This document shows, piece after piece, positions 2,712 through 57,894 of a DNA stretch of 64,000 nucleotides (within the stretch, counting starts at the first letter, position 1; each line of letters starts with the position of its first letter). The position numbers were made by a program, and so were the translations under genes. This stretch comes from Candidatus Zixiibacteriota bacterium (GTDB taxonomy: Bacteria; UBP14; UBA6098): assembly GCA_011388305.1 (NCBI GenBank), contig DSAF01000158.1, positions 2,212-66,211 of the forward strand, read 5' to 3'. The notes below the pieces were generated by a model, which did no database searches, was not told the origin of the DNA, and worked only from the letters and a program-made list of their open reading frames with translations.

Positions 2712-3920
2712 TTATTTATCGGCCTTCGGGTTCGATATTCTTCCCATGAAGAGGATGCTTCCGGTTTCGTTGTCGCGGATGATGAAAATGAACGGGTGGT
2801 CCGCGCGGAAAATCGGAGTGGGCTGTGGCATCGCCGCCTTCGTGGCCATCTCAACAGCGGTCGCCGCCGCGGCCTCGGTGCCTTTCTCGTTCACCTCGAT
2901 GAAAGCCTTGTGTTTAATCTGTGAAATCCAAAGCTCGCCGACCGGCCATCCCGTCCCGCTGAAATCGGCGACGTCCATCATAAACGCATCCCTCATGCCA
3001 AGGCTCTTGAATGGCGGGACGAGGCTGTAATCCGTCTTAAGCTCGAACTTGGGGATATAGAGCTTGACCTTCTCCTCCTCGTGGCTGTCGATTTCGGAGA
3101 GCCATTTGGCGAGGTTCTGCGGAGTCAGCTTGCTCTCGATTCCGGCGAGGTCGCCCCTCTCGTTCGGGAGGAAAATCACCATCGACATCGGCCTGCCCTT
3201 ATATGGCAATGAAATCGCCTGAAAGCCGTCGCCCTCGAGGAGCTTGAAACGGCTTTCTTGGAACATCATCGGGACGGAGACTTCATCATCGGGTGCAATA
3301 TAGAACGGCGCGTCGCGCGTGGCGTGGCCTTGAAACGGCGAGAGCCAATCGCCCTTGAAATAAATCGCGTTGAGGATGACGCAGACGGAGTTCGGGTCGA
3401 GCCTATCGAGGATTTTCTCAATCTTGCCGTGAGTCTTATCGCTCACCCACTCGTTGATTTTATCGAGGTCGCCGAAGAAAATTTCCGCGTGATAGTTCTG
3501 CGCGAGAAGGCTTTTGAATTCGCCGGAAACATCCCCGCCGGTGAGGGACAGCGCATTGGCGATGTCGAGCCTCGGCTCGGTTCCGACGAGGTTAGATATA
3601 AGTTCGCCGAAGGCACTATGAACGCCCTCGCCATCGGGAAGTTCCAGCGCGGAGCGCATCTCATCGGCGGTGTTCCCCCGCGCGCCGGAGAATGTCATCC
3701 CCAGCGCCGAGGACACACTGAACGGCGAGAAGAAAAGGTTGCCCTCATCGTCGCGAAGCTGGCCATACAGCTTGACCGCGAAGGCGTTATTCCCCGAAAC
3801 AAGCGCGGAGATGCCATCGGGGGGCGTGTTTTCGGGGGCTTTCGAGAGGGCAGTCGCCAGAGTCGCCAGAAGGCACATAAGTGTGAGAATAGTTGTCGTC
3901 CTGTCCATCGTCATCTCCAT
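2712..3920 (-). CDS. serpin (serine protease inhibitor) family protein
   Basis: Signal peptide, then a serpin core. The C-terminal region with a reactive-centre loop and the FIFIIRDNETGSILFMGRISNP tail is diagnostic. Confidence 0.85.
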   Translation of the reverse strand: MEMTMDRTTTILTLMCLLATLATALSKAPENTPPDGISALVSGNNAFAVKLYGQLRDDEGNLFFSPFSVSSALGMTFSGARGNTADEMRSALELPDGEGVHSAFGELISNLVGTEPRLDIANALSLTGGDVSGEFKSLLAQNYHAEIFFGDLDKINEWVSDKTHGKIEKILDRLDPNSVCVILNAIYFKGDWLSPFQGHATRDAPFYIAPDDEVSVPMMFQESRFKLLEGDGFQAISLPYKGRPMSMVIFLPNERGDLAGIESKLTPQNLAKWLSEIDSHEEEKVKLYIPKFELKTDYSLVPPFKSLGMRDAFMMDVADFSGTGWPVGELWISQIKHKAFIEVNEKGTEAAAATAVEMATKAAMPQPTPIFRADHPFIFIIRDNETGSILFMGRISNPKADK

Positions 3921-3975
3921 TGAATTATGTTTTCAATGAATTATAACGATAGTGTCAAGTCATGCAAAGAAAAAA

Positions 3976-4048
3976 TACCCCATGGAGGATTCGAACCTCC
4001 GACCCACTGATTAAGAGTCAGTTGCTCTGCCAGCTGAGCTAATGGGGC
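3976..4048 (-). tRNA. tRNA-Lys (anticodon CTT)
   Basis: The reverse complement folds as a cloverleaf: acceptor GCCCCAT, D-arm GCTC/AGCTGGCA/GAGC, anticodon stem ACTGA/TCAGT with loop CTCTTAA, and T-arm GGAGG-TTCGAAT-CCTCC. Pair 1-72 is G·U. CCA is not encoded. Confidence 0.85.
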
Positions 4049-4168
4049 ATTTCGCGGCCGGCCAATTCGGCCGATGTTCCGTCAATTTATTCCAAATGCA
4101 TTGGTATTTCAAGCTATTTGTGAAATTTTTTCGCCGGAAGCTCTCGCTTTTTTGCTCAATTTCGCCTC

Positions 4169-4304
4169 GCGCGGGGGCGTCGGCGCGCGTAAACGCGCCG
4201 CGAAGTAGTCGGAGCGCGATCCTGCACAACAAAGAAAGTCTTCCGCCCGACTACTTCGAGCCTGCCTGCGATTTGTAAATCGCAGGCAGGGCCGACGCCC
4301 CGCC
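4169..4304 (+). repeat. copy 1 of a ~135-nt GC-rich structured intergenic repeat (outer stem plus three hairpins)
   Basis: GGGGGCGTCGGC...GCCGACGCCCC outer inverted repeat enclosing three hairpins: GCGCG-TAAA-CGCGC, a 12-bp stem CGAAGTAGTCGG/CCGACTACTTCG with a 34-nt loop, and the palindrome CCTGCCTGCGATTT-GT-AAATCGCAGGCAGG. The same architecture recurs at 26711-26844 and 56386-56522. Confidence 0.8.
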
Positions 4305-4431: not shown

Positions 4432-5484
4432 ATGGGGAAATGGCTTATCACAGGCGGTTCAGGGTTTCTCGGAATTAACCTGATTAGATATCTGCTCGAT
4501 AAAGGCGAGGAAATAGTCTCGCTCGACATTCTGCCATTCACATACGACGACTGCGCGGATAAAATCGCCCATGTTCGGGGAGACATTCGCGACAAAGACA
4601 CCGTCGATAGGTGCATGGAGGGCGTCGATATCGTGATGCACGGCGCGGCGGCACTGCCGCTATACTCAAAAGAGGACATCTACACCACCAACATCGATGG
4701 CACCGAGAAAGTCTTCCAGTCCGCACTCGAACACGGACTCAAGCGCGCAATCTACATCTCCTCGACAGCCGTCTATGGCATCCCTGACCATCACCCGATT
4801 TACGAAGAGGACAAGCTCATAGGCGTCGGGCCATACGGCGAGGCCAAAATCGAGGCGGAGAAGCTCGCCAAAATTTTCCGCGGGCGCGGAATGACGATTA
4901 CCACCATCCGCCCGAAATCATTCATCGGGCCGGAGAGGCTCGGCGTGTTCGGCATTTTCTACGAATGGGCCAACGAGGGGCGAAGTTTCCCGATGATAGG
5001 CAGAGGCAACAACTTATACCAGCTCCTCGATGTCGAGGATTTATGCGAGGCGATTTGGATGGCCGCGAACTTCGAGGACGAGGACGCGGTGAACACCGAG
5101 TTCAACATCGGCGCAAAGGAATTCTCGACCATGCGCGAGGACTATCAGGTCGTCCTCGATGCCGCCGGCTTCGGCAAAAAAATCAAAGGCTCGCCGGGAA
5201 ACTTGGTGGTTTTCACCCTCGAAGTCCTCGATAAGCTTAAGCTCTCGCCCTTGTATCCGTGGGTTTATAAGACCGCGACCAAAGACTCATTCGTCTCGGT
5301 GGAGAAAGCGGAAAAAGTTCTGGGGTTCACGCCGAAATTCTCGAACAAAGACGCGCTTCTTCGCAACTACGAGTGGTTTTTGGAGAATGTCGATAAATTC
5401 CATCGAGGCGACACACAAGACGGCATCACCCATCGAGTGCCTTGGAAGCAGGGCATCCTCGGCGTCATCAAGCGGTTCTTCTGA
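4432..5484 (+). CDS. NAD-dependent epimerase/dehydratase family protein (SDR, sugar-nucleotide modifying)
   Basis: Rossmann motif MGKWLITGGSGFLGINLIRYLL with a YxxxK active-site region. The start was moved to the internal MGKW, because the upstream part of the ORF is not protein-like. Confidence 0.8.
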   Translation: MGKWLITGGSGFLGINLIRYLLDKGEEIVSLDILPFTYDDCADKIAHVRGDIRDKDTVDRCMEGVDIVMHGAAALPLYSKEDIYTTNIDGTEKVFQSALEHGLKRAIYISSTAVYGIPDHHPIYEEDKLIGVGPYGEAKIEAEKLAKIFRGRGMTITTIRPKSFIGPERLGVFGIFYEWANEGRSFPMIGRGNNLYQLLDVEDLCEAIWMAANFEDEDAVNTEFNIGAKEFSTMREDYQVVLDAAGFGKKIKGSPGNLVVFTLEVLDKLKLSPLYPWVYKTATKDSFVSVEKAEKVLGFTPKFSNKDALLRNYEWFLENVDKFHRGDTQDGITHRVPWKQGILGVIKRFF

Positions 5485-8963: not shown

Positions 8964-10199
8964 TTAGTCCCTGAATCCTATGACATAGATGGCCGAGGCA
9001 AAAGAGCCTGCTGAGGCGAGGCCCTTGAATGTTTCGATGGCAACATACCACGGCGAAGTTCCTACGATGATGACGTCACCTCTGCGAACTGTGCCCGCCT
9101 TATTGGGCTTCATCTTTTCGCCGCCTCGGATGATTCTAACCTGCCCAATTCCGCCCTCGGTTGAAACTCCACCGGCCATGGCGACATACGCTCTGTAGTC
9201 TGCGCCCGACACATAGGGCACCGTGCCGCCGGCCACGACCCTTCCGCCGACATAGACGGAGTCCGGCAAATCCTTGAAAAAAATGCTATCCCCTGCGCTT
9301 ATCGAGGTGCTTTTCCCATCGCCGAAGAGGTTGATAGAGAAGATTTCTCCGCCTCGAACGAGGCCGATGTCGGCGAGGTCGATATGCTCTCTGCTCGCAT
9401 CTACTCGTCGGATAAGCTCCTCGGCGGTGACGCCCGACTCGATGTTGACAATTTCGCCCGAGTATCCCGCCCCGAAAACAAAGACTGCGGGCTTCGATAT
9501 GTCTGCGCCGGGAACGACAACCAAATCGCCATCGAGGAGGTATGGATTCTGCGAGATGTCGCCAAGAGTGAGGAATCTCGAAAGGTCAAGCTCCCGCTCT
9601 GCGCCGCGGCGGATGAGCTTGACTCTGCTCAAATCGCCGGAGGGAAGCCTCCCGCCGGCCAGCTCTATCGCCGAGAAAACTCGATGCACCGCGCTGACCG
9701 TCTGGTTGCCGGGGAGGTTCACCATGCCCACGACATTGACGATGAACATGCGCGCCGATGTCAGCGAAACTGTCAGGTCGCTCTCGCGGATGACTTTGCC
9801 GAGCGCGGAGTTGATATCCGCTTTGGCCTCGGCGAGCGTTTTGCCCGCGACTTTCACGGCAGTTATGTATGGCAAAACGATTGAGCCGTCCGCGCCCACG
9901 ATGGCCTGAAACTGCTCCTCGATTCCGCCGGCGATGCTAATCGTGAACTGGTCGCCGGGGCCAATGATGTAATCGTTTTCATCGACGGCGCCCTCGAGCG
10001 GGATGTAATCCACGATGCCCTCGAGATCGGTGCGTCTTTTTTCGAGTTCTCTGAGCCTGTCCTCCAGCGGAAGCCTCGCGCTACGGACACCCGTGGTGGA
10101 AGATTCCCTTCGCTGGAGTGCGCTTGGCTGTTGCATTTGCTGTGCAAATGCCGAAACGGCTATCGCCATCGCGAGGATGGCTGTGAATGCGAGTCTCAT
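8964..10199 (-). CDS. polysaccharide export protein (Wza-like, Poly_export plus SLBB domains)
   Basis: GPGD motif (DYIIGPGDQFTISI) followed by SLBB-like repeats. The start is set at the internal MRLAFTAIL (signal peptide), which gives a 4-nt ATGA overlap with rfbB. Confidence 0.8.
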   Translation of the reverse strand: MRLAFTAILAMAIAVSAFAQQMQQPSALQRRESSTTGVRSARLPLEDRLRELEKRRTDLEGIVDYIPLEGAVDENDYIIGPGDQFTISIAGGIEEQFQAIVGADGSIVLPYITAVKVAGKTLAEAKADINSALGKVIRESDLTVSLTSARMFIVNVVGMVNLPGNQTVSAVHRVFSAIELAGGRLPSGDLSRVKLIRRGAERELDLSRFLTLGDISQNPYLLDGDLVVVPGADISKPAVFVFGAGYSGEIVNIESGVTAEELIRRVDASREHIDLADIGLVRGGEIFSINLFGDGKSTSISAGDSIFFKDLPDSVYVGGRVVAGGTVPYVSGADYRAYVAMAGGVSTEGGIGQVRIIRGGEKMKPNKAGTVRRGDVIIVGTSPWYVAIETFKGLASAGSFASAIYVIGFRD

Positions 10200-23729: not shown

Positions 23730-26597
23730 CTACTTCATATAAACTATCTTGCCTCCGGCCTGCTCGCCGCCCGATGTCACCCTGTAGAGATAAGTCCCCG
23801 TAGGGAGAAACTCGCCGTTTTCGAGCGTCGCGTTCCAGCGGATGAGGTTCGGGCCGGCCTTCGCCGACGGCAATGAGAAATTGCGCACGAGGCGGCCGTT
23901 TACGTCGAATATGTCTATCTCCACCGGCGCAGGCTCAGGAATGTCGAAGCCGAGTATCACCGCGCTGTTGAACGGATTCGGATACGGCGAGAGGAGCTTC
24001 ATCGAATACGGCCTCACCGCCTCCTCGGGAACATCCCAGAAATAGGGGACATCCGCCCACGCCAAAGCCCTCTCGAGGAAAGAGTGGCGTAGGCTATCGC
24101 TGAATCCCTCGATGCCGAACTCGAGAAGTATGCTCTTCCATCCCTCGGGGCTTTCATAGCGAACTCCGCAAGTCGAGTCGGGAAGCTCGCCTGCATTGTA
24201 GTAGAGGAACGGAATTCCGCCGCCGACTGCGCTACAGCTTCCCGTGTATCGCTGGTTAAGGGCGCTTCCGCCCCCAAACGCGATATTGTCCTCGAATCCG
24301 TCGCCGATGATGTCGCCGTCCAAGCCTTTGATGTTCATGGCCAGAGCCAGCGGGACGACATCCTCCACATGCCTCGTGCCGAAAACTCGCTCGAGCCAAG
24401 CGGGCGTGGCCATCTGGGGCATGTGTTGGCCGGTGAGCATGAGCAATCTTCCGGCTTCGGCGGAGAGCCAGCCCTCCATGTCGGCCTCGCTTGAACCAGG
24501 GAGAACCCTATGGCCGGACTCGTCGCCGGTCATGTAAATTATCACTCTATGGCGATCCATAATTTCGCGGGGGAGGCCGGTAGTTGGCACGAAAACGCTG
24601 TCGAACGGCACTCCGCCCCAGCGAAGCGATCCCATTACTTTATTTATATAGTCGAATGTCGTGTCTATCGATGCTACGAGAACCTCGGGATATCCCACCA
24701 TCGTTCTGAAATTGGCGATGTGGACGTAGCGGTCGGGCGTGGTTAACTCGATTTTGAAACTGACGAATCGTCCGTAGCGGTGCGTAGGATCCATCTTGAA
24801 AACTATCGGGTTGCCCGCGTTCGAGTTGGTTGCGCCGTTGGGAATAGAGCCGATAGTCGCGATGCTATCGAGTATTATCACGAGCGTGTCTTTGGTTGTC
24901 ACTTTGATTTGCGCGCCTGTCGCGGGCGCCCAAGTCGGGTCGGCGCTGTTCTCGTATGTGAAGAAAAGCTCGACTCTCTCGTCCGGCTCGGGGCGGCCGT
25001 TGCCGTTCTCGTCGATAAGCTCGACATCGACTAAAGACAGCGATGGGAATATGCCCGCGGCGAGTGCCCTGAAAGCGTTGACTCTGCCGGAACCGAGCTG
25101 TTCGCCCGCGGCGTATGATGCATTGCCGGGGACGTCGTATATATAGTCCGCCCAGTCCTCTAACCTCTGGCGAATCCAGTGGTTAGAGCTGTCCGGGAAG
25201 AAGCTCCATAGAAGTCCGGCGGCACCCGCGACAACGGGCGCGGCCATGCTCGTGCCATCGAAAGAGGCGTATCCGGGAGCGAAATTCGACCACCATGAAC
25301 CATCGCACGGTGCTGGTGGGCGCTCGTAGAAGCGCGGCACTGTCGAGCCCATATCCTCGCCCGGGGCCGAGATATCGACAGTTGTGCTGAAATTAGAAAA
25401 TCCCGCTTTGCGGTCGGATGGGCCGGTGGCGGCAACGGCAATAACCTCGGGATATGCCGACGGATAGTGAAGCTCATCGGTGTTGTCGTTGCCGGCGGCG
25501 GCTGTGATGAGCACGCCCCAGCTGTTGACTGCTGTGTCTATGAGAGAATGAACGAAATGGCTCGAATCCCTTCCGCCGTAGCTGAAGTTGAAAACCTTAC
25601 AACCCATCATAGTGCCGTAATGCAGAGCCTGTATGACGGCGGCGTTCTGGTTATATCCGCGACAGTCGCGCGAATAATAGCCCGTGCGGAGTGCCATAAT
25701 TTGCGTCCGCCATGTGATTCCCGCGATGCCGACGTTGTTGTTGGCCTCGGCGGTCATGATGCCCGTGCAATGCGTTCCGTGGCCGTTATATCTGAAGTCC
25801 ATCGGGTCGTTGTCGAAATCGAGGCCGTCCTCGCGGATTGTCGGGTCGGTGGGGTGGCGGTATGCATCGGTGAAAACGCCATCGACGAAATCATAACCGA
25901 TGAAGTCGTCGATATATCCGTTGCCGTCGAGGTCGAAGGATGAGTCTGGCGGAAGTGTCCAGTCTTGTTGGACATCCCCCGGATCGAATCCTACGCCGGG
26001 GATGAAGACATAGCCGTTGTCGTTCAAGTCTTCGCCGAGATTCTGCCACATAAGGTTGGTCAAGTCCTCGTGGAGATAGTCCACGCCGGAATCGCATGCG
26101 CCCATGATAATCGTCGGCTCGCCCTGCGTGAAGTCCCAGACGCGGTCTGCCTGAATTTTGCGGGCATACCATTGGTGCGACCAGTAGAACGGGTCGTTGG
26201 GCGTCGCGCACTGGACATAAACGAAATCAGGCTCCATGATTGTGATGCCCTTCGCGCCATGCAAAAGCTCCATGGCCGATGGGACGTCGATTTTTTCTTC
26301 ATCGAAATATACTTTGAACCATCTCTCGACCCAGCGCCACCTCCGGCGATATTCGGGGTTCGGAGCGATAGGGATGAGCCTCCGCCAACGATCGACGCCA
26401 ATTACGCGGAAAGCCGCGTCGATTTCGGGCCAGCCGGTTGTGACGAAGCCGTCCTCGTCGATTATAGGGTCGCCGAATTCCGTCTCTTCGATTTCCATAA
26501 GAAGTGTGCCGGAAACCCATCGTGTGGGGTCGTCTTGCGCGAAAGCGGCGAGAGCCAAAACAATCAGCGCAACAGCTATTAACATCAAACTTCGCAT
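23730..26597 (-). CDS. subtilisin-like serine peptidase (S8) with a T9SS C-terminal sorting domain
   Basis: Catalytic Asp/His/Ser motifs: DSGVDYLHEDL, HGTHCTGIM, GTSMAAPVVAGAAGLL. The C-terminus carries the T9SS CTD signature YPNPFNSAV...GTYLYRV. The start is set at MRSLMLIAV (signal peptide). Confidence 0.85.
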   Translation of the reverse strand: MRSLMLIAVALIVLALAAFAQDDPTRWVSGTLLMEIEETEFGDPIIDEDGFVTTGWPEIDAAFRVIGVDRWRRLIPIAPNPEYRRRWRWVERWFKVYFDEEKIDVPSAMELLHGAKGITIMEPDFVYVQCATPNDPFYWSHQWYARKIQADRVWDFTQGEPTIIMGACDSGVDYLHEDLTNLMWQNLGEDLNDNGYVFIPGVGFDPGDVQQDWTLPPDSSFDLDGNGYIDDFIGYDFVDGVFTDAYRHPTDPTIREDGLDFDNDPMDFRYNGHGTHCTGIMTAEANNNVGIAGITWRTQIMALRTGYYSRDCRGYNQNAAVIQALHYGTMMGCKVFNFSYGGRDSSHFVHSLIDTAVNSWGVLITAAAGNDNTDELHYPSAYPEVIAVAATGPSDRKAGFSNFSTTVDISAPGEDMGSTVPRFYERPPAPCDGSWWSNFAPGYASFDGTSMAAPVVAGAAGLLWSFFPDSSNHWIRQRLEDWADYIYDVPGNASYAAGEQLGSGRVNAFRALAAGIFPSLSLVDVELIDENGNGRPEPDERVELFFTYENSADPTWAPATGAQIKVTTKDTLVIILDSIATIGSIPNGATNSNAGNPIVFKMDPTHRYGRFVSFKIELTTPDRYVHIANFRTMVGYPEVLVASIDTTFDYINKVMGSLRWGGVPFDSVFVPTTGLPREIMDRHRVIIYMTGDESGHRVLPGSSEADMEGWLSAEAGRLLMLTGQHMPQMATPAWLERVFGTRHVEDVVPLALAMNIKGLDGDIIGDGFEDNIAFGGGSALNQRYTGSCSAVGGGIPFLYYNAGELPDSTCGVRYESPEGWKSILLEFGIEGFSDSLRHSFLERALAWADVPYFWDVPEEAVRPYSMKLLSPYPNPFNSAVILGFDIPEPAPVEIDIFDVNGRLVRNFSLPSAKAGPNLIRWNATLENGEFLPTGTYLYRVTSGGEQAGGKIVYMK

Positions 26598-26710
26598 AGT
26601 CACTCCATGACAATCTGAGTTTACAAATTTATAGATTATATTTGAATAGCATCGCAAAGTCAAACCAAAATGCAATTTGGAGTTTGTTTCGATATTTTTG
26701 TGATTTCCGA

Positions 26711-26844
26711 GCAGGGGGCGTCGGCCCTTCCTGCGATTTGTAAAATCGCAGGAAGGTGCGAAGTAGTCGGTGGGCAGTTATTTGCCACAATAAGCAATCG
26801 CGCCCCGACTACTTCGTAGCGCGTTTACGCGCGCCGACGCCCCG
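26711..26844 (-). repeat. copy 2 of the structured intergenic repeat, inverted orientation
   Basis: Module order on the plus strand is outer-D-C-B-outer: TTCCTGCGATTT-GTA-AAATCGCAGGAA, then GCGAAGTAGTCGG...CCGACTACTTCG, then GCGCG-TTTA-CGCGC, bounded by GGGGGCGTCGGC / GCCGACGCCCC. Confidence 0.8.
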
Positions 26845-26919
26845 TGAGGAGCGAAAAAACAGCTTGACTTTCATGAAGGGGATGCGTATTTTTATTAAAA
26901 GTTAGGAAGAATTAACTCA

Positions 26920-27234
26920 ATGCGGCTCGATATAATCCAAGACGGCGAATTTGCACAGGTAATCGATGTGTGCGGGCAAGGCCCTATCCGTGCGAGACTC
27001 ATGGACATGGGATTCTCCCGAGGCACAACAGTCGAGGTCATCCGCAAGGCGCCGATGGGCGGCCCCATCGAGGTGAGAGTCAAGGGAACGCTGGTATCTC
27101 TGAGGCCACAGGAGGCCATGATGGTCGAAGTCGCTCCTATCGTCCGTAGGCGAGGATATCGCCATCGCGGGCGGCGCGGATTTTTTCGCGGTTTCATGAA
27201 TTTCTTCGAAAACGGCACCGATGGAGACAAGTAG
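26920..27234 (+). CDS. feoA: FeoA domain protein with an Arg-rich C-terminal extension
   Basis: An SH3-like FeoA core (VIDVCGQGPIRARLMDMGFSRGTTVEV), then an RRRGYRHRGRRGFFRGF tail. The 3' end overlaps the feoB start. Confidence 0.8.
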   Translation: MRLDIIQDGEFAQVIDVCGQGPIRARLMDMGFSRGTTVEVIRKAPMGGPIEVRVKGTLVSLRPQEAMMVEVAPIVRRRGYRHRGRRGFFRGFMNFFENGTDGDK

Positions 27235-55474: not shown

Positions 55475-56305
55475 TCATTTTTTTACAGTGAAACGAAATG
55501 CGCAGAACGGCGCGGTCGTGTTTTCCACGCGAAATTCGACGATGTTCTCGCCTTTGGGGAGTTCGATGTCAAAGCGCCGCGCCCTCGCAGGAATAACGCT
55601 CGGCTCGTTCTCGAAAATAGCTGTCTCGGAGATAGACGCGCGGAGCCTCGTGCGCGTCTCCGTTCCGTCCGCCCTCCTAACAACGACGGTGTAATTCTGC
55701 GCGCCCTTCATCGTCTTGTCGAAAGCGAGCCTCGTCCATACGGTTAGCATCCCCGCGCCATTATATTTGATGGTGACCGCCTTCTTGCCTTTGCCGGTGT
55801 AGTAAGTCGAACGGGTGTCCCCAACTACAAGCGCAAGCGCCTTGTCATATCGTTCGGGCGTAATGCGCGATGGGCTTCGCGGGATAGCGATTAGCCGCGC
55901 AAAAAGCTCGCCGTCGGTGGTCATCTTCAGCTCGCGCTTGCCGCGCTCCAGCTTGATTTTCAGTATTTTCGCCTGAGTGACCGGCACGGGCTTGGCCTTG
56001 CCAACCTCCATGCGGTATTTCTTCGATGGCCTCTCCGAGAAAGTGAAGCGCTTGAACTCCGCGCCATCGATGTGGAGAACAAAATCTGCGGACTTGCCCG
56101 CCTCGGCGCGAACATATAGGTGCACATATCCCGGGCCTTCGGCCGTCCACTCAATTGGGGTTTTGGCTGTAAGTTGTGAATATGAGTATCGTCCGTCGCC
56201 GCCGATAAGCCTGCACTGTGTGCCGGCCCTCTTCGGCTGAATCAACTGCGCAGTCGCCGTGAAGGCGAGCGCAAATATCGCACCGACGATGATTGTCTTC
56301 CGCAT
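55475..56305 (-). CDS. hypothetical secreted protein
   Basis: 276 aa with a signal peptide (MRKTIIVGAIFALAFTATAQ). Lys/Arg-rich; no family assigned. Confidence 0.55.
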   Translation of the reverse strand: MRKTIIVGAIFALAFTATAQLIQPKRAGTQCRLIGGDGRYSYSQLTAKTPIEWTAEGPGYVHLYVRAEAGKSADFVLHIDGAEFKRFTFSERPSKKYRMEVGKAKPVPVTQAKILKIKLERGKRELKMTTDGELFARLIAIPRSPSRITPERYDKALALVVGDTRSTYYTGKGKKAVTIKYNGAGMLTVWTRLAFDKTMKGAQNYTVVVRRADGTETRTRLRASISETAIFENEPSVIPARARRFDIELPKGENIVEFRVENTTAPFCAFRFTVKK

Positions 56306-56385
56306 CTTTCCTCCGAAAAAATGACATCACTATATGATAGGCCGAAGTCCTGCCTATGTCAAACAGCTAATTTCGCTTTCAGCCC

Positions 56386-56522
56386 GCAGGGGGGCGTCGG
56401 CGGCCGTGAACGGCCAGCGAAGTAGTCGGGGCAGAATCGTCGCTTTGTGCAAAAAATCTCCCCCGACTACTTCGCTCTCACCTGCGATTTGTTAAATCGC
56501 AGGTGAGGCCGACGCCCCCCCC
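56386..56522 (+). repeat. copy 3 of the structured intergenic repeat
   Basis: GGGGGGCGTCGGC / GGCCG-TGAA-CGGCC / GCGAAGTAGTCGGGG...CCCCGACTACTTCGC / CTCACCTGCGATTT-GTT-AAATCGCAGGTGAG / GCCGACGCCCCCC. Stems are kept by compensatory substitutions relative to copy 1. Confidence 0.8.
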
Positions 56523-56544
56523 GTTTGCACGCGCGAAAATCGAA

Positions 56545-57894
56545 TTAAATCTCGCCGTATTCTTCAAGCTTGCGGTAGAGCGTTCTCAGGCCTATGCCGA
56601 GAATTTCGGCGGCGCGCTTCTTATCGCCATCGCACTCTTCGAGCGTCTCGAGAATGGCAGTGCGCTCCAAATCGCGAATCGGAATGCCCCCGAGCTTGCC
56701 GCTATCGAACGAGCGCTCGACTCGAATCGTCTCGGGGACATTCGACAGCACCGGCTCCGGGCTGAAAATCGCCATCTGCTCGAGCGCGTGCTTTAACTCG
56801 CGGATGTTTCCCGGCCATTTATATTCCATGAAGACCTCCATCGCCTCCTCGGAGAGGGCCTCGAGCTTGCGGTTGAGTTGCACCGAGAGGCGGTTGAGAA
56901 AGAACTCCACGAGGCGCGGAATGTCCTCTTTGCGCTCGCGAAGCGGCGGTAGGTCTATTGTGACAACGCGCAACCGATACAGCAAATCCTGACGGAATTC
57001 GCCTTTGCGGACGGCTTCGTCGAGGTCGCGGTTAGTCGATGAGACGACGCGCAAATCGAGCTGTTTCGAGCCTCTTCCGCCGAGGCGCTCGACCGTGGAG
57101 TTCTCGAGCACACGAAGAAGTTTCGGCTGAAGCCTCAACGGGACATCGCCAATCTCATCGAGGACGATAGTTCCGCCGGATGACTGCTCGAATTTGCCCG
57201 GCCTGCTGTCGGTGGCACCTGTGAAAGCGCCCTTTTCATGGCCGAAAAGCTCGCTCTCCATGAGTGTCTCCGGTATCGCCGAGCAGTTAACCTTGACCAG
57301 CGGGCCTTCCGCACGCGATGACACCTTGTGAATCGCGTCGGCGACCAGCTCTTTGCCGGTGCCGCTTTCGCCGGTGATGAGCACCGTTGTGTCAATCGGC
57401 GCGACGGCCTTGACTTGCTCGAAAACTTTGACGATGGCCGGAGATTCCCCCACGATGCCCATCCACGCGCCCTCACCACGAAGCGCCGACTCGAGTTCCT
57501 TCTGCCGACGAATCATGTGCGACACCTCGAGAGCCTTGTCGGCCAACGCGCGGAGACGGCGTATATCGACGGGCTTCGTGAGATAGTCGTATGCGCCCTT
57601 CTTCATCGCCTCGATTGCCGTATCGACGGAGCCGTGGCCGGTGACGAGGATTACCTCCGCCGGCGACTCGGCGGTTCGCGCCATTTCGAGAAGGTCGATG
57701 CCGCCGATAGTCCCCGGAAGCATGAGGTCGGCAATGAGGAGGTCGATGTCGAGCTTCTCGAAGAGCTTTTTGGCCTGTTCGCCGGTCTGGGCGGTATGTA
57801 TAATTCGGTCTTCGGTTTCGAGAACTTCGCTCAAAGTCTCGAGCTGAGCCGGTTCGTCGTCAACTACGAGCAGGTGATTCTTATTGTCTTGCAT
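56545..57894 (-). CDS. sigma-54-dependent response regulator (NtrC family: receiver, AAA+ and Fis-type HTH)
   Basis: Receiver Asp (DLLIADLMLPG), Walker A GESGTGKE, the GAFTGA motif and a C-terminal HTH. Confidence 0.9.
   Translation of the reverse strand: MQDNKNHLLVVDDEPAQLETLSEVLETEDRIIHTAQTGEQAKKLFEKLDIDLLIADLMLPGTIGGIDLLEMARTAESPAEVILVTGHGSVDTAIEAMKKGAYDYLTKPVDIRRLRALADKALEVSHMIRRQKELESALRGEGAWMGIVGESPAIVKVFEQVKAVAPIDTTVLITGESGTGKELVADAIHKVSSRAEGPLVKVNCSAIPETLMESELFGHEKGAFTGATDSRPGKFEQSSGGTIVLDEIGDVPLRLQPKLLRVLENSTVERLGGRGSKQLDLRVVSSTNRDLDEAVRKGEFRQDLLYRLRVVTIDLPPLRERKEDIPRLVEFFLNRLSVQLNRKLEALSEEAMEVFMEYKWPGNIRELKHALEQMAIFSPEPVLSNVPETIRVERSFDSGKLGGIPIRDLERTAILETLEECDGDKKRAAEILGIGLRTLYRKLEEYGEI

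Follow-up and report, generated by a model that had tools for sequence, protein, structure and literature searches.

A family of short interspersed palindromic repeats with three hairpins enclosed by an outer inverted repeat in a Candidatus Zixiibacteriota genome

Bacterial miniature inverted-repeat transposable elements (MITEs) and long structured repeats (Correia/NEMIS, ERIC, BOX, RUP, bcr1, RPE) are intergenic, non-coding units of about 100-200 bp with terminal inverted repeats. MITEs are accompanied by target-site duplications, have their inverted repeats in common with an autonomous insertion sequence (IS), and most of them fold as one long imperfect hairpin. The bacterial interspersed mosaic elements (BIMEs) of E. 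coli are tandem alternations of repetitive extragenic palindrome (REP) units at the 3′ ends of genes and bind IHF and gyrase. In the attC sites of integrons, the sequence varies but the structure is conserved, and recognition takes place on folded single-stranded DNA. REPINs, which are inverted doublets of REPs with a spacer, are extragenic, fold in single-stranded DNA or mRNA, are better conserved than REP singlets and are linked to RAYT (REP-associated tyrosine) transposases (PMC3116915). REPs have been sorted into superfamilies tagged by GTAG or CGTC, often form inverted dimers with spacers of 20-100 bp carrying stem-loops of their own, and are for the most part located downstream of genes, where the adjoining open reading frames (ORFs) are convergent or unidirectional (PMC3733652). 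The CGTC REPs, for which no dedicated transposase is known, have an unpaired tag and a CCA tail, with a 4-5-nt loop on a stem of 8-9 bp whose positions 1 and 2 are A/T (PMC3733652). Here, a 64-kb stretch of a Candidatus Zixiibacteriota genome (contig DSAF01000158.1; hereafter the window) was analysed for three copies of a GC-rich element of about 128 bp, in which an outer inverted repeat closes three hairpins. The element is shown to belong to a statistically solid family of short non-coding interspersed palindromic repeats in a bacterial chromosome.

The three copies are located where an initial annotation of the sequence had placed them, with cores at 4174-4301 (+), 26715-26843 (inverted, -) and 56391-56518 (+), and they score 134.8, 145.4 and 145.5 bits, respectively, with the covariance model R1. 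All modules named in that annotation are present, namely the outer inverted repeat, a short hairpin (H1), a 12-bp long-range stem (H2) and a palindrome with complementary foot bases (H3). The outer inverted repeat GGGGCGTCGGC/GCCGACGCCCC is 11 bp long (11-14 bp, G/C-rich). H1 consists of a 5-bp all-G/C stem and a 4-nt loop, H2 has a loop of about 34 nt, and H3 (CCTGCGATTT..AAATCGCAGG) is a near-perfect palindrome with a 14-bp stem and a 2-4-nt loop, whose foot bases are variable yet complementary. In copy 1, read on the plus strand, the 5′ outer arm GGGGCGTCGGC, which includes the tetranucleotide CGTC, was found by exact match at 4174-4184 and pairs with the 3′ outer arm GCCGACGCCCC, likewise an exact match, at 4291-4301. 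Between the arms lie H1 (GCGCG-TAAA-CGCGC, 4185-4198) and H3 (CCTGCCTGCGATTT-GT-AAATCGCAGGCAGG, 4261-4290), both recognised by sequence and fold, and H2 (4201-4258), which was located by stem search and has the 12-bp stem CGAAGTAGTCGG/CCGACTACTTCG around a 34-nt loop. The corresponding outer arms are at 26715-26725 and 26833-26843 in copy 2 and at 56391-56401 and 56508-56518 in copy 3. Both the 11-nt outer arms and the 12-nt H2 stem CGAAGTAGTCGG with its complement have exact matches at only three sites in the window, and the pattern GGCGTCGGC-N90-120-GCCGACGCC was matched three times in the window and not once in 100 shuffles. Secondary structure prediction with RNA parameters gave minimum free energies of -87 to -101 kcal/mol for the window copies (z = -8 to -15), the reverse complement being equally stable, and DNA parameters gave the same structure at -54 to -62 kcal/mol. 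According to these predictions, a four-way junction can be folded by either strand. Some H1 variants (GGCCGTGCACGGCC) are perfect DNA palindromes.

The metagenome scan was carried out with the H2 stem pattern and returned 38 loci, mostly from the ENA assembly OMKS01, in which copies were defined by nhmmer and by the covariance model R1 built from alignment A6. In total, 39 distinct full-length copies including the three of the window were obtained, with scores of 100-155 bits. The initial annotation had made the family depend on further copies, and 36 of them were found outside the window, on 27 contigs of one metagenome assembly and in unrelated flanks. A second subfamily with the same plan and other hairpin sequences was detected in OMKS01 with the covariance model (L094:1202-1340); its parts are the outer stem CCGGCGGCGTCGGC, H1 with GCAACC-GAA-GGTTGC, an H2 stem with the 5′ arm TTCGGCGAACCGGA and the 3′ arm TCCGGTTCGCCGC, and a 14-bp H3 stem with the 5′ arm CGCATAGCTACGC. 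This element has a glycosyltransferase gene and an AcrB-type gene as neighbours. Scanning of the GTDB species representatives with the outer-arm pattern yielded 63 loci, about 58 of which are chance matches in high-GC genomes that do not share the inner modules. Three are true relatives, two from UBA6098 (L001, L045) and one from an uncultured bacterium (L017), with identical arms and diverged H1, H2 and H3. A fourth relative (L106:21126-21284), from a genome whose FeoB is 67% identical, follows the plan with yet other sequences, GGCGTCG being present in the outer stem. The L106 element carries an A-tract before and a T-tract after the outer stem, which is the geometry of a bidirectional terminator, yet it lies between divergent NUDIX and BacA genes.

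Three further loci of the metagenome scan were rejected as unrelated long perfect hairpins that contain the 12-mer CGAAGTAGTCGG by chance. These hairpins of about 70-110 nt (L076:1505-1574, L084:1-90 and L097:38-145) are located on unrelated JGI metagenome contigs, the first two at contig ends and the third near a contig start, and may have arisen by fold-back during assembly or represent palindromic elements of another kind. A plasmid collection searched with blastn and viral contigs searched in two scans gave no match to the element. The absence of a match to a known family, already noted in the initial annotation, was borne out: Rfam at the gathering threshold reported only the tRNA-Lys in the whole window, a permissive Rfam scan of copy 3 returned only generic miRNA-type hairpin matches (12-25 bits vs. 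cut-offs of 49-168), ARAGORN and Rfam RF00005 reported no tRNA-like cloverleaf other than the tRNA-Lys at 3975-4049, and no description of the element family was found in the literature. Moreover, a short-read contig of the same strain (L110:1-30; Logan SRR7787372_443) terminates within the element, where the 3′ half of H2/H1 begins; short-read assemblies of this lineage are fragmented by the repeat.

The folded arrangement proposed in the initial annotation, with an outer stem closing three hairpins and compensated base changes, received strong support once the 39 copies and the diverged subfamilies were aligned. Standard pairs account for 96.5% of 1831 pair cells. Changes on both sides occur in 17 pairs and 106 cells, compared to 33.6±6.6 cells in shuffles (0/500), and sliding of the partner columns by 1-3 positions lowers the pairing to 37-48%. 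The covariation signal comes mostly from a 4-bp box at the foot of H3, of which 12 variants occur among the copies, complementary in all but one of them (L095, CCTC/GTGG, a single mismatch); two of its pairs, for example, are distributed as CG:20/UA:18/GC:1 and as UA:15/CG:13/AU:5/GC:4 with one mismatch. In addition, the two middle pairs of H1 swap between GC and CG (29 vs. 8 copies), and the outer stem has two double substitutions (L081 and L093). Among the copies, the types of H1 and the boxes of H3 occur in free combination. Across the subfamilies, in an alignment (A7) that was fitted to the covariance model, compensatory changes are present in 25 of 42 pairs (9 of these among the 12 pairs of H2), and pairing is retained in 98.6% of the cells, while GGCGTCG is kept in the outer stem of every subfamily seen.

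The claim that structure and not sequence is under selection holds for one part of the element only. The H3 box and two base pairs of H1 drift with compensation, whereas an identity of 98% among the 39 copies is found for the outer stem and for the CTGCGATTT/AAATCGCAG portion of H3 (the 100% identity of the H2 stem is imposed by the search pattern). Identity between copies is near saturation in the H3 loop (36%), in the middle of the H2 loop (39%) and in the H3 box (54%). Among the 1714 cells of the core pairing, 1686 are Watson-Crick pairs, five are G·T, ten are A·C, without exception at a single position next to the junction, and 13 are mismatches of other kinds; there is neither wobble enrichment nor strand asymmetry. 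Covariation of pairs that are essentially all of the Watson-Crick type and lack a wobble signature, in an element whose strands fold alike and whose orientation is random, does not point to RNA. As a caution, perfect covariation in a repeat family is no evidence for RNA.

In order to classify the spacers, rough ORF calls were used, by which 37 copies could be assigned. All 37 are intergenic, with 16 copies in divergent, 16 in tandem and five in convergent spacers, and in the tandem spacers the orientation is random (7 sense vs. 9 antisense). The copies occur singly and are not clustered. Beyond the core, a mirrored T-rich motif GATTTTCGC about 22 nt outside each arm extends the inverted repeat, in degenerate form, to about 190 bp; ATTTTC is found 21-30 nt beyond the arm in 18 of 78 flanks (0.54 expected), mirrored on the two sides. 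The consensus of the 3′ flank is CCCCCCGAGCG...AAAATC, so that on each strand a T-rich motif precedes and an A-rich motif follows the stem. In copy 3, these flanks are represented by ATTTCGC, a degenerate variant of GATTTTCGC, at 56370-56376 (+) and by the mirror motif GCGAAAATC at 56534-56542 (+), which shows the family-wide enrichment. No U-tract follows the outer stem in the main family, the order of the flanks being the reverse of that of a terminator. Strand symmetry, random orientation and flank geometry together argue against a strand-specific RNA, a 5′-untranslated region (UTR) regulator and a terminator, and a DNA-level, orientation-independent element is favoured.

Several candidate features of the flanks and of the H2 loop were examined and rejected. 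The 150-nt flanks of the three window copies are without extended similarity, and their reading as parts of a longer conserved unit or as a promoter was rejected. GCGAAAA just upstream of TTGAC at feoA and ahcY had raised the idea that GATTTTCGC is a promoter UP-like element; this was rejected because sides that face outward-transcribed genes do not carry the motif more often (18/49) than those that face inward genes (17/27), and because it is without sense bias upstream of 248 genes lacking the element. A role of the H2 loop as guide or complement to nearby DNA was likewise dismissed, since its longest matches to its own flanks have a mean of 8.95 nt, compared to 8.86 nt in the control. Two motifs were noted in the H2 loop, namely the semi-conserved dyad GGAAG(A/T)CTTCC and the 5′ segment GGGGC-R-N-GAT(T/C)G (e.g. 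at 56440-56462; columns 74-88 of alignment A6). Both are too tight for hairpins and, judged from sequence, might be candidate sites for dimeric proteins; mutual information gave no convincing additional helix within this loop.

A non-autonomous mobile element of the REP/BIME/REPIN or MITE kind, which would be recognised via its conserved stems and probably as folded single-stranded DNA, is the explanation we consider reasonably probable. The flanks of the 39 copies are unrelated, and near-identical sister copies are present at different loci, such as L070 and L100 with 93% loop identity. Loop similarity predicts a shared H3 box among the copies, which indicates descent with modification. Even so, some close pairs of copies differ by one fully compensated H3 box. 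These box differences and the free combination of H1 and H3 suggest either exchange between copies or concerted correction from arm to arm. The presence of the element is lineage-specific. Upstream of feoA it is found in the window organism and is absent in UBA6098 and in a third lineage, and upstream of ahcY it is present in UBA6098, just before the promoter, and absent in five related genomes with AhcY proteins of 85-92% identity, the window organism among them. Same-strain contigs with identical flanking proteins all carry the element or break inside it. As a mechanism, a trans-acting enzyme would recognise the sequence-conserved stems, probably on folded single-stranded DNA in the manner of HUH/Y1 (RAYT-type) transposases, and would copy or move the unit into intergenic DNA. 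The loops would need only to stay unpaired and the 4-bp box of H3 only to stay paired, and both could therefore drift. The dispersal in many copies, the architecture, the covariation, the strand symmetry, the random orientation and the lineage-specific presence beside orthologous genes are demonstrated by the data; mobility itself, a single-stranded DNA intermediate and the enzyme type are inferred.

A number of results weigh against mobility. The target-site duplications that were to be looked for at the element boundaries are absent (none of 3 bp or more), and no 3-8-nt direct repeat is common to more than 7 of 38 copies for any pair of boundary offsets of 0-49 nt. A clean empty site at nucleotide resolution was not obtained, as the nearest relatives differ in the neighbouring gene. 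No transposase, integrase or other mobile-element gene was detected by Pfam among the ORFs of the 64-kb window, and the genes beside the diverged copies are, according to Pfam, housekeeping genes and include none of mobile elements. An all-against-all comparison of 331 ORFs from the loci gave no multicopy mobile-element protein near the elements, and a crude regular-expression search of about 0.55 Mb gave no ORF with an HUH/Y1 motif (HUH...Y). As for a parent IS, no solitary or widely spaced arm pairs were found in the roughly 0.53 Mb searched. Unlike classical REPs, the copies show no concentration at the 3′ ends of genes. Divergent spacers hold 43% of the copies, compared to 13% of all background spacers and 21% of those of at least 60 nt; the element-free background comprises 30 divergent, 159 tandem and 45 convergent spacers, or 22, 63 and 19 when only spacers of at least 60 nt are counted, a restriction by which the divergent excess shrinks. 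Finally, a covariance-model search of about 380 kb gave no decayed copies. Their absence, together with saturated loops and intact stems, points to possible selection on each copy in place and hence to a host function.

The main rival is a DNA structural or protein-binding element used by the host, possibly an exapted repeat, that forms a cruciform or four-way junction or serves as a site for a nucleoid or topology protein. The copies would buffer supercoiling or organise the chromosome, especially between divergent promoters, and each would be kept by selection in place. This is rather unlikely in our estimate, although it is compatible with a mobile origin. The 98% identity of the stems beside saturated loops and the lack of decayed copies fit such a role, as does the symmetric pairing exclusively of the Watson-Crick type, which would suit double-stranded or cruciform DNA. 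The architecture is kept across related genera; however, the element is absent beside the same genes in related genomes, so that a locus-specific function is not conserved, and its density appears to differ between related genomes at the loci compared. Enrichment in divergent spacers and the location of copy 2 exactly between two outward promoter-like sites are in line with a host element, but the enrichment is largely gone once spacer length is considered. The dyads GCGATTT-N3-AAATCGC in H3 and GGAAGWCTTCC in the H2 loop as well as the GATTTTCGC flank motifs resemble dimeric protein sites, but no binding protein was identified.

A related proposal is that of a structure-specific module conserved across the UBP14/'Zixibacteria' lineage, each copy of which is kept intact by selection and is not merely selfish DNA; we regard it as unlikely. 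The invariant stems (the GGCGTCG arm of the outer stem, CG..G..CGG of H2 and CTGC of H3) would then be the docking site of a junction- or single-stranded-DNA-binding enzyme or of a nucleoid protein, and the loops and the 4-bp box, hypervariable yet always complementary, would either be free or confer specificity. If true, the family would represent a novel type of four-way-junction element in chromosomes or the substrate on which a so far undescribed system of single-stranded DNA transposition or recombination acts.

That the element acts as a structured non-coding RNA, either a multicopy small RNA or a cis-acting UTR element which, in the manner of transcribed REPs, would stabilise or process mRNA, in each case via the four-way-junction fold, appears improbable. 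The very stable predicted fold (z = -8 to -15) is matched by an equally good fold of the opposite strand, and the strong covariation lacks a wobble signature, with five G·U against ten A·C among the 1714 cells. Although 23 of the 37 classified copies are situated upstream of a gene whose sense they share (16 divergent and seven tandem-sense copies, typically 20-150 nt from the start codon), the orientation of the tandem copies is random and five copies are in convergent spacers. Furthermore, the element comes without a conserved promoter or terminator of its own and without a corresponding Rfam family, the loop left in palindromic H1 variants (GGCCGTGCACGGCC, for example) would be of 2 nt, which is disfavoured in RNA, and among relatives the presence of the element beside a given gene varies. 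That the element is an intrinsic terminator of transcription, possibly a bidirectional one, or an insulator is very improbable: despite the GC-rich outer stem and the terminator-like tracts around that of L106:21126-21284, the main family has the reversed geometry with T-rich sequence before and A-rich sequence after the stem, a terminator scan found no site at copy 2, and 16 of the 37 copies as well as L106 lie between divergent genes, where there is nothing to terminate. Among the roles listed in the initial annotation, the REP/MITE-like mobile element is thus favoured, whereas the terminator or insulator is not supported, for want of a U-tract and on account of the many divergent copies, and the small RNA lacks support.

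The chromosomal setting of the three window copies is ordinary. The window ORFs, as assigned by Pfam, encode ProRS, DnaJ, SecDF, LptFG, FeoAB, SerRS, TsaE, UPRTase, two-component systems and proteins with sorting tails of the type IX secretion system (T9SS). The genome nearest to the window organism is UBA6098 (GTDB UBP14), with identities of 76% for FeoB and 91% for AhcY. As had been annotated initially, all copies lie between genes, spaced 8-30 kb apart among housekeeping genes. Copy 1 is flanked by the tRNA-Lys (3975-4049, -) and an ORF for an NAD-dependent epimerase (4432-5484, +), copy 2 by the starts of an S8 protease with a T9SS tail (23730-26597, -) and of FeoA (26920-27234, +), and copy 3 by two minus-strand ORFs, to both of which it is antisense, namely a 276-aa orphan ORF (55475-56305) and a sigma-54 response regulator (56545-57894). 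The 276-aa ORF, which the initial annotation had labelled a secreted protein, has no Pfam match; as an orphan, it provides no orthologous locus for comparison.

On either side of copy 2, sigma-70-like promoter matches point outward towards the protease gene and feoA, at 26635-26663 (-) and 26864-26892 (+), with the sequences TTGACT-17-TATAAT (11/12) and TTGACT-17-TATTTT (9/12). Across the family, TTGAC in outward orientation shows mild enrichment 25-40 nt beyond the arms (9 observed, about 1.4 expected). A full-length bacterial serpin is encoded at 2712-3920 (-), adjoining the tRNA-Lys and copy 1 (Pfam Serpin, E = 2e-108). Additionally, a leader of about 25 nt, TATGGG(A/T)TC(A/G)AGAGC(G/A)GG(G/T)CCA(A/C)AT, is conserved before the start of ahcY (adenosylhomocysteinase) in three related genomes (L001 ~3913-3940, L112 ~358-385 and L114 ~9886-9912), downstream of a promoter-like site CTTGACC-17-TATAWT. 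It had no match in Rfam at the gathering threshold or at E<=1 and, from its conservation, could be an undescribed leader or riboswitch.

If the reading as a mobile repeat is right, a well-defined interspersed repeat family is added from a candidate phylum without cultured members, with an architecture of three hairpins within an outer inverted repeat that differs from the single-hairpin model of REPs and REPINs. Saturated loops stand out from invariant or compensated stems with unusual clarity, which makes the family a good system for asking what maintains palindromic repeats, be it recognition by a transposase, templated repair or use by the host. In practice, the covariance model can be used as a lineage marker, and the element breaks short-read assemblies of these metagenome-assembled genomes.

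Compared with the described systems, the element is closest in several respects to REPINs and their RAYT transposases. Both are short, non-coding and extragenic with dozens of copies or more, consist of inverted repeats around a foldable spacer, are more conserved than decaying DNA and form sequence populations with subfamilies within a genome. Like a REPIN, the element is an inverted, hairpin-forming doublet with many extragenic copies (at least 39, all intergenic), but its fold is branched: a REPIN is one long hairpin of two REPs of 20-40 nt, whereas here the outer stem closes three separate hairpins. Next to none of the solitary copies was a RAYT gene found at the loci searched by regular expression and Pfam. 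With the tagged REPs the element shares CGTC in both outer arms and, in the H2 arm of the main family, GTAG, which is not conserved in the other subfamilies. Each half, composed of CGTC, GGC and a hairpin, resembles a tagged REP, and by analogy the element may be regarded as a heterodimer in inverted arrangement, with CGTC-GGC-H1 and CGTC-GGC-H3 on either side of the structured spacer H2. Unlike an unpaired terminal tag, however, CGTC is base-paired inside the outer stem, with GGC between it and H1 or H3, the stems of 5 bp (H1) and 14 bp (H3) do not match the stems and loops of CGTC-1 to CGTC-4, and the CCA tail is absent. The distribution over divergent, tandem and convergent spacers (16, 16 and 5) also deviates from the location of REPs at 3′ ends and between convergent or unidirectional genes. 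The similarities to MITEs are the size, the terminal inverted repeats, the strong predicted structure and the intergenic dispersal; the differences are the lack of target-site duplications and of a detected parent IS, and the multi-branch junction. BIMEs are likewise mosaics of palindromic modules with variants recombining between copies and possible protein-binding dyads, while here a single fixed unit has a nested architecture. With attC sites there is a functional analogy in the conserved structure and the variable sequence, but the element lacks R''/R' core sites (GTTRRRY), its arms being GGGGCGTCGGC, and neither a cassette array nor an intI integrase gene lies nearby in the window. The element fits no named family and is treated here as a repeat that would work like a REPIN or a MITE.

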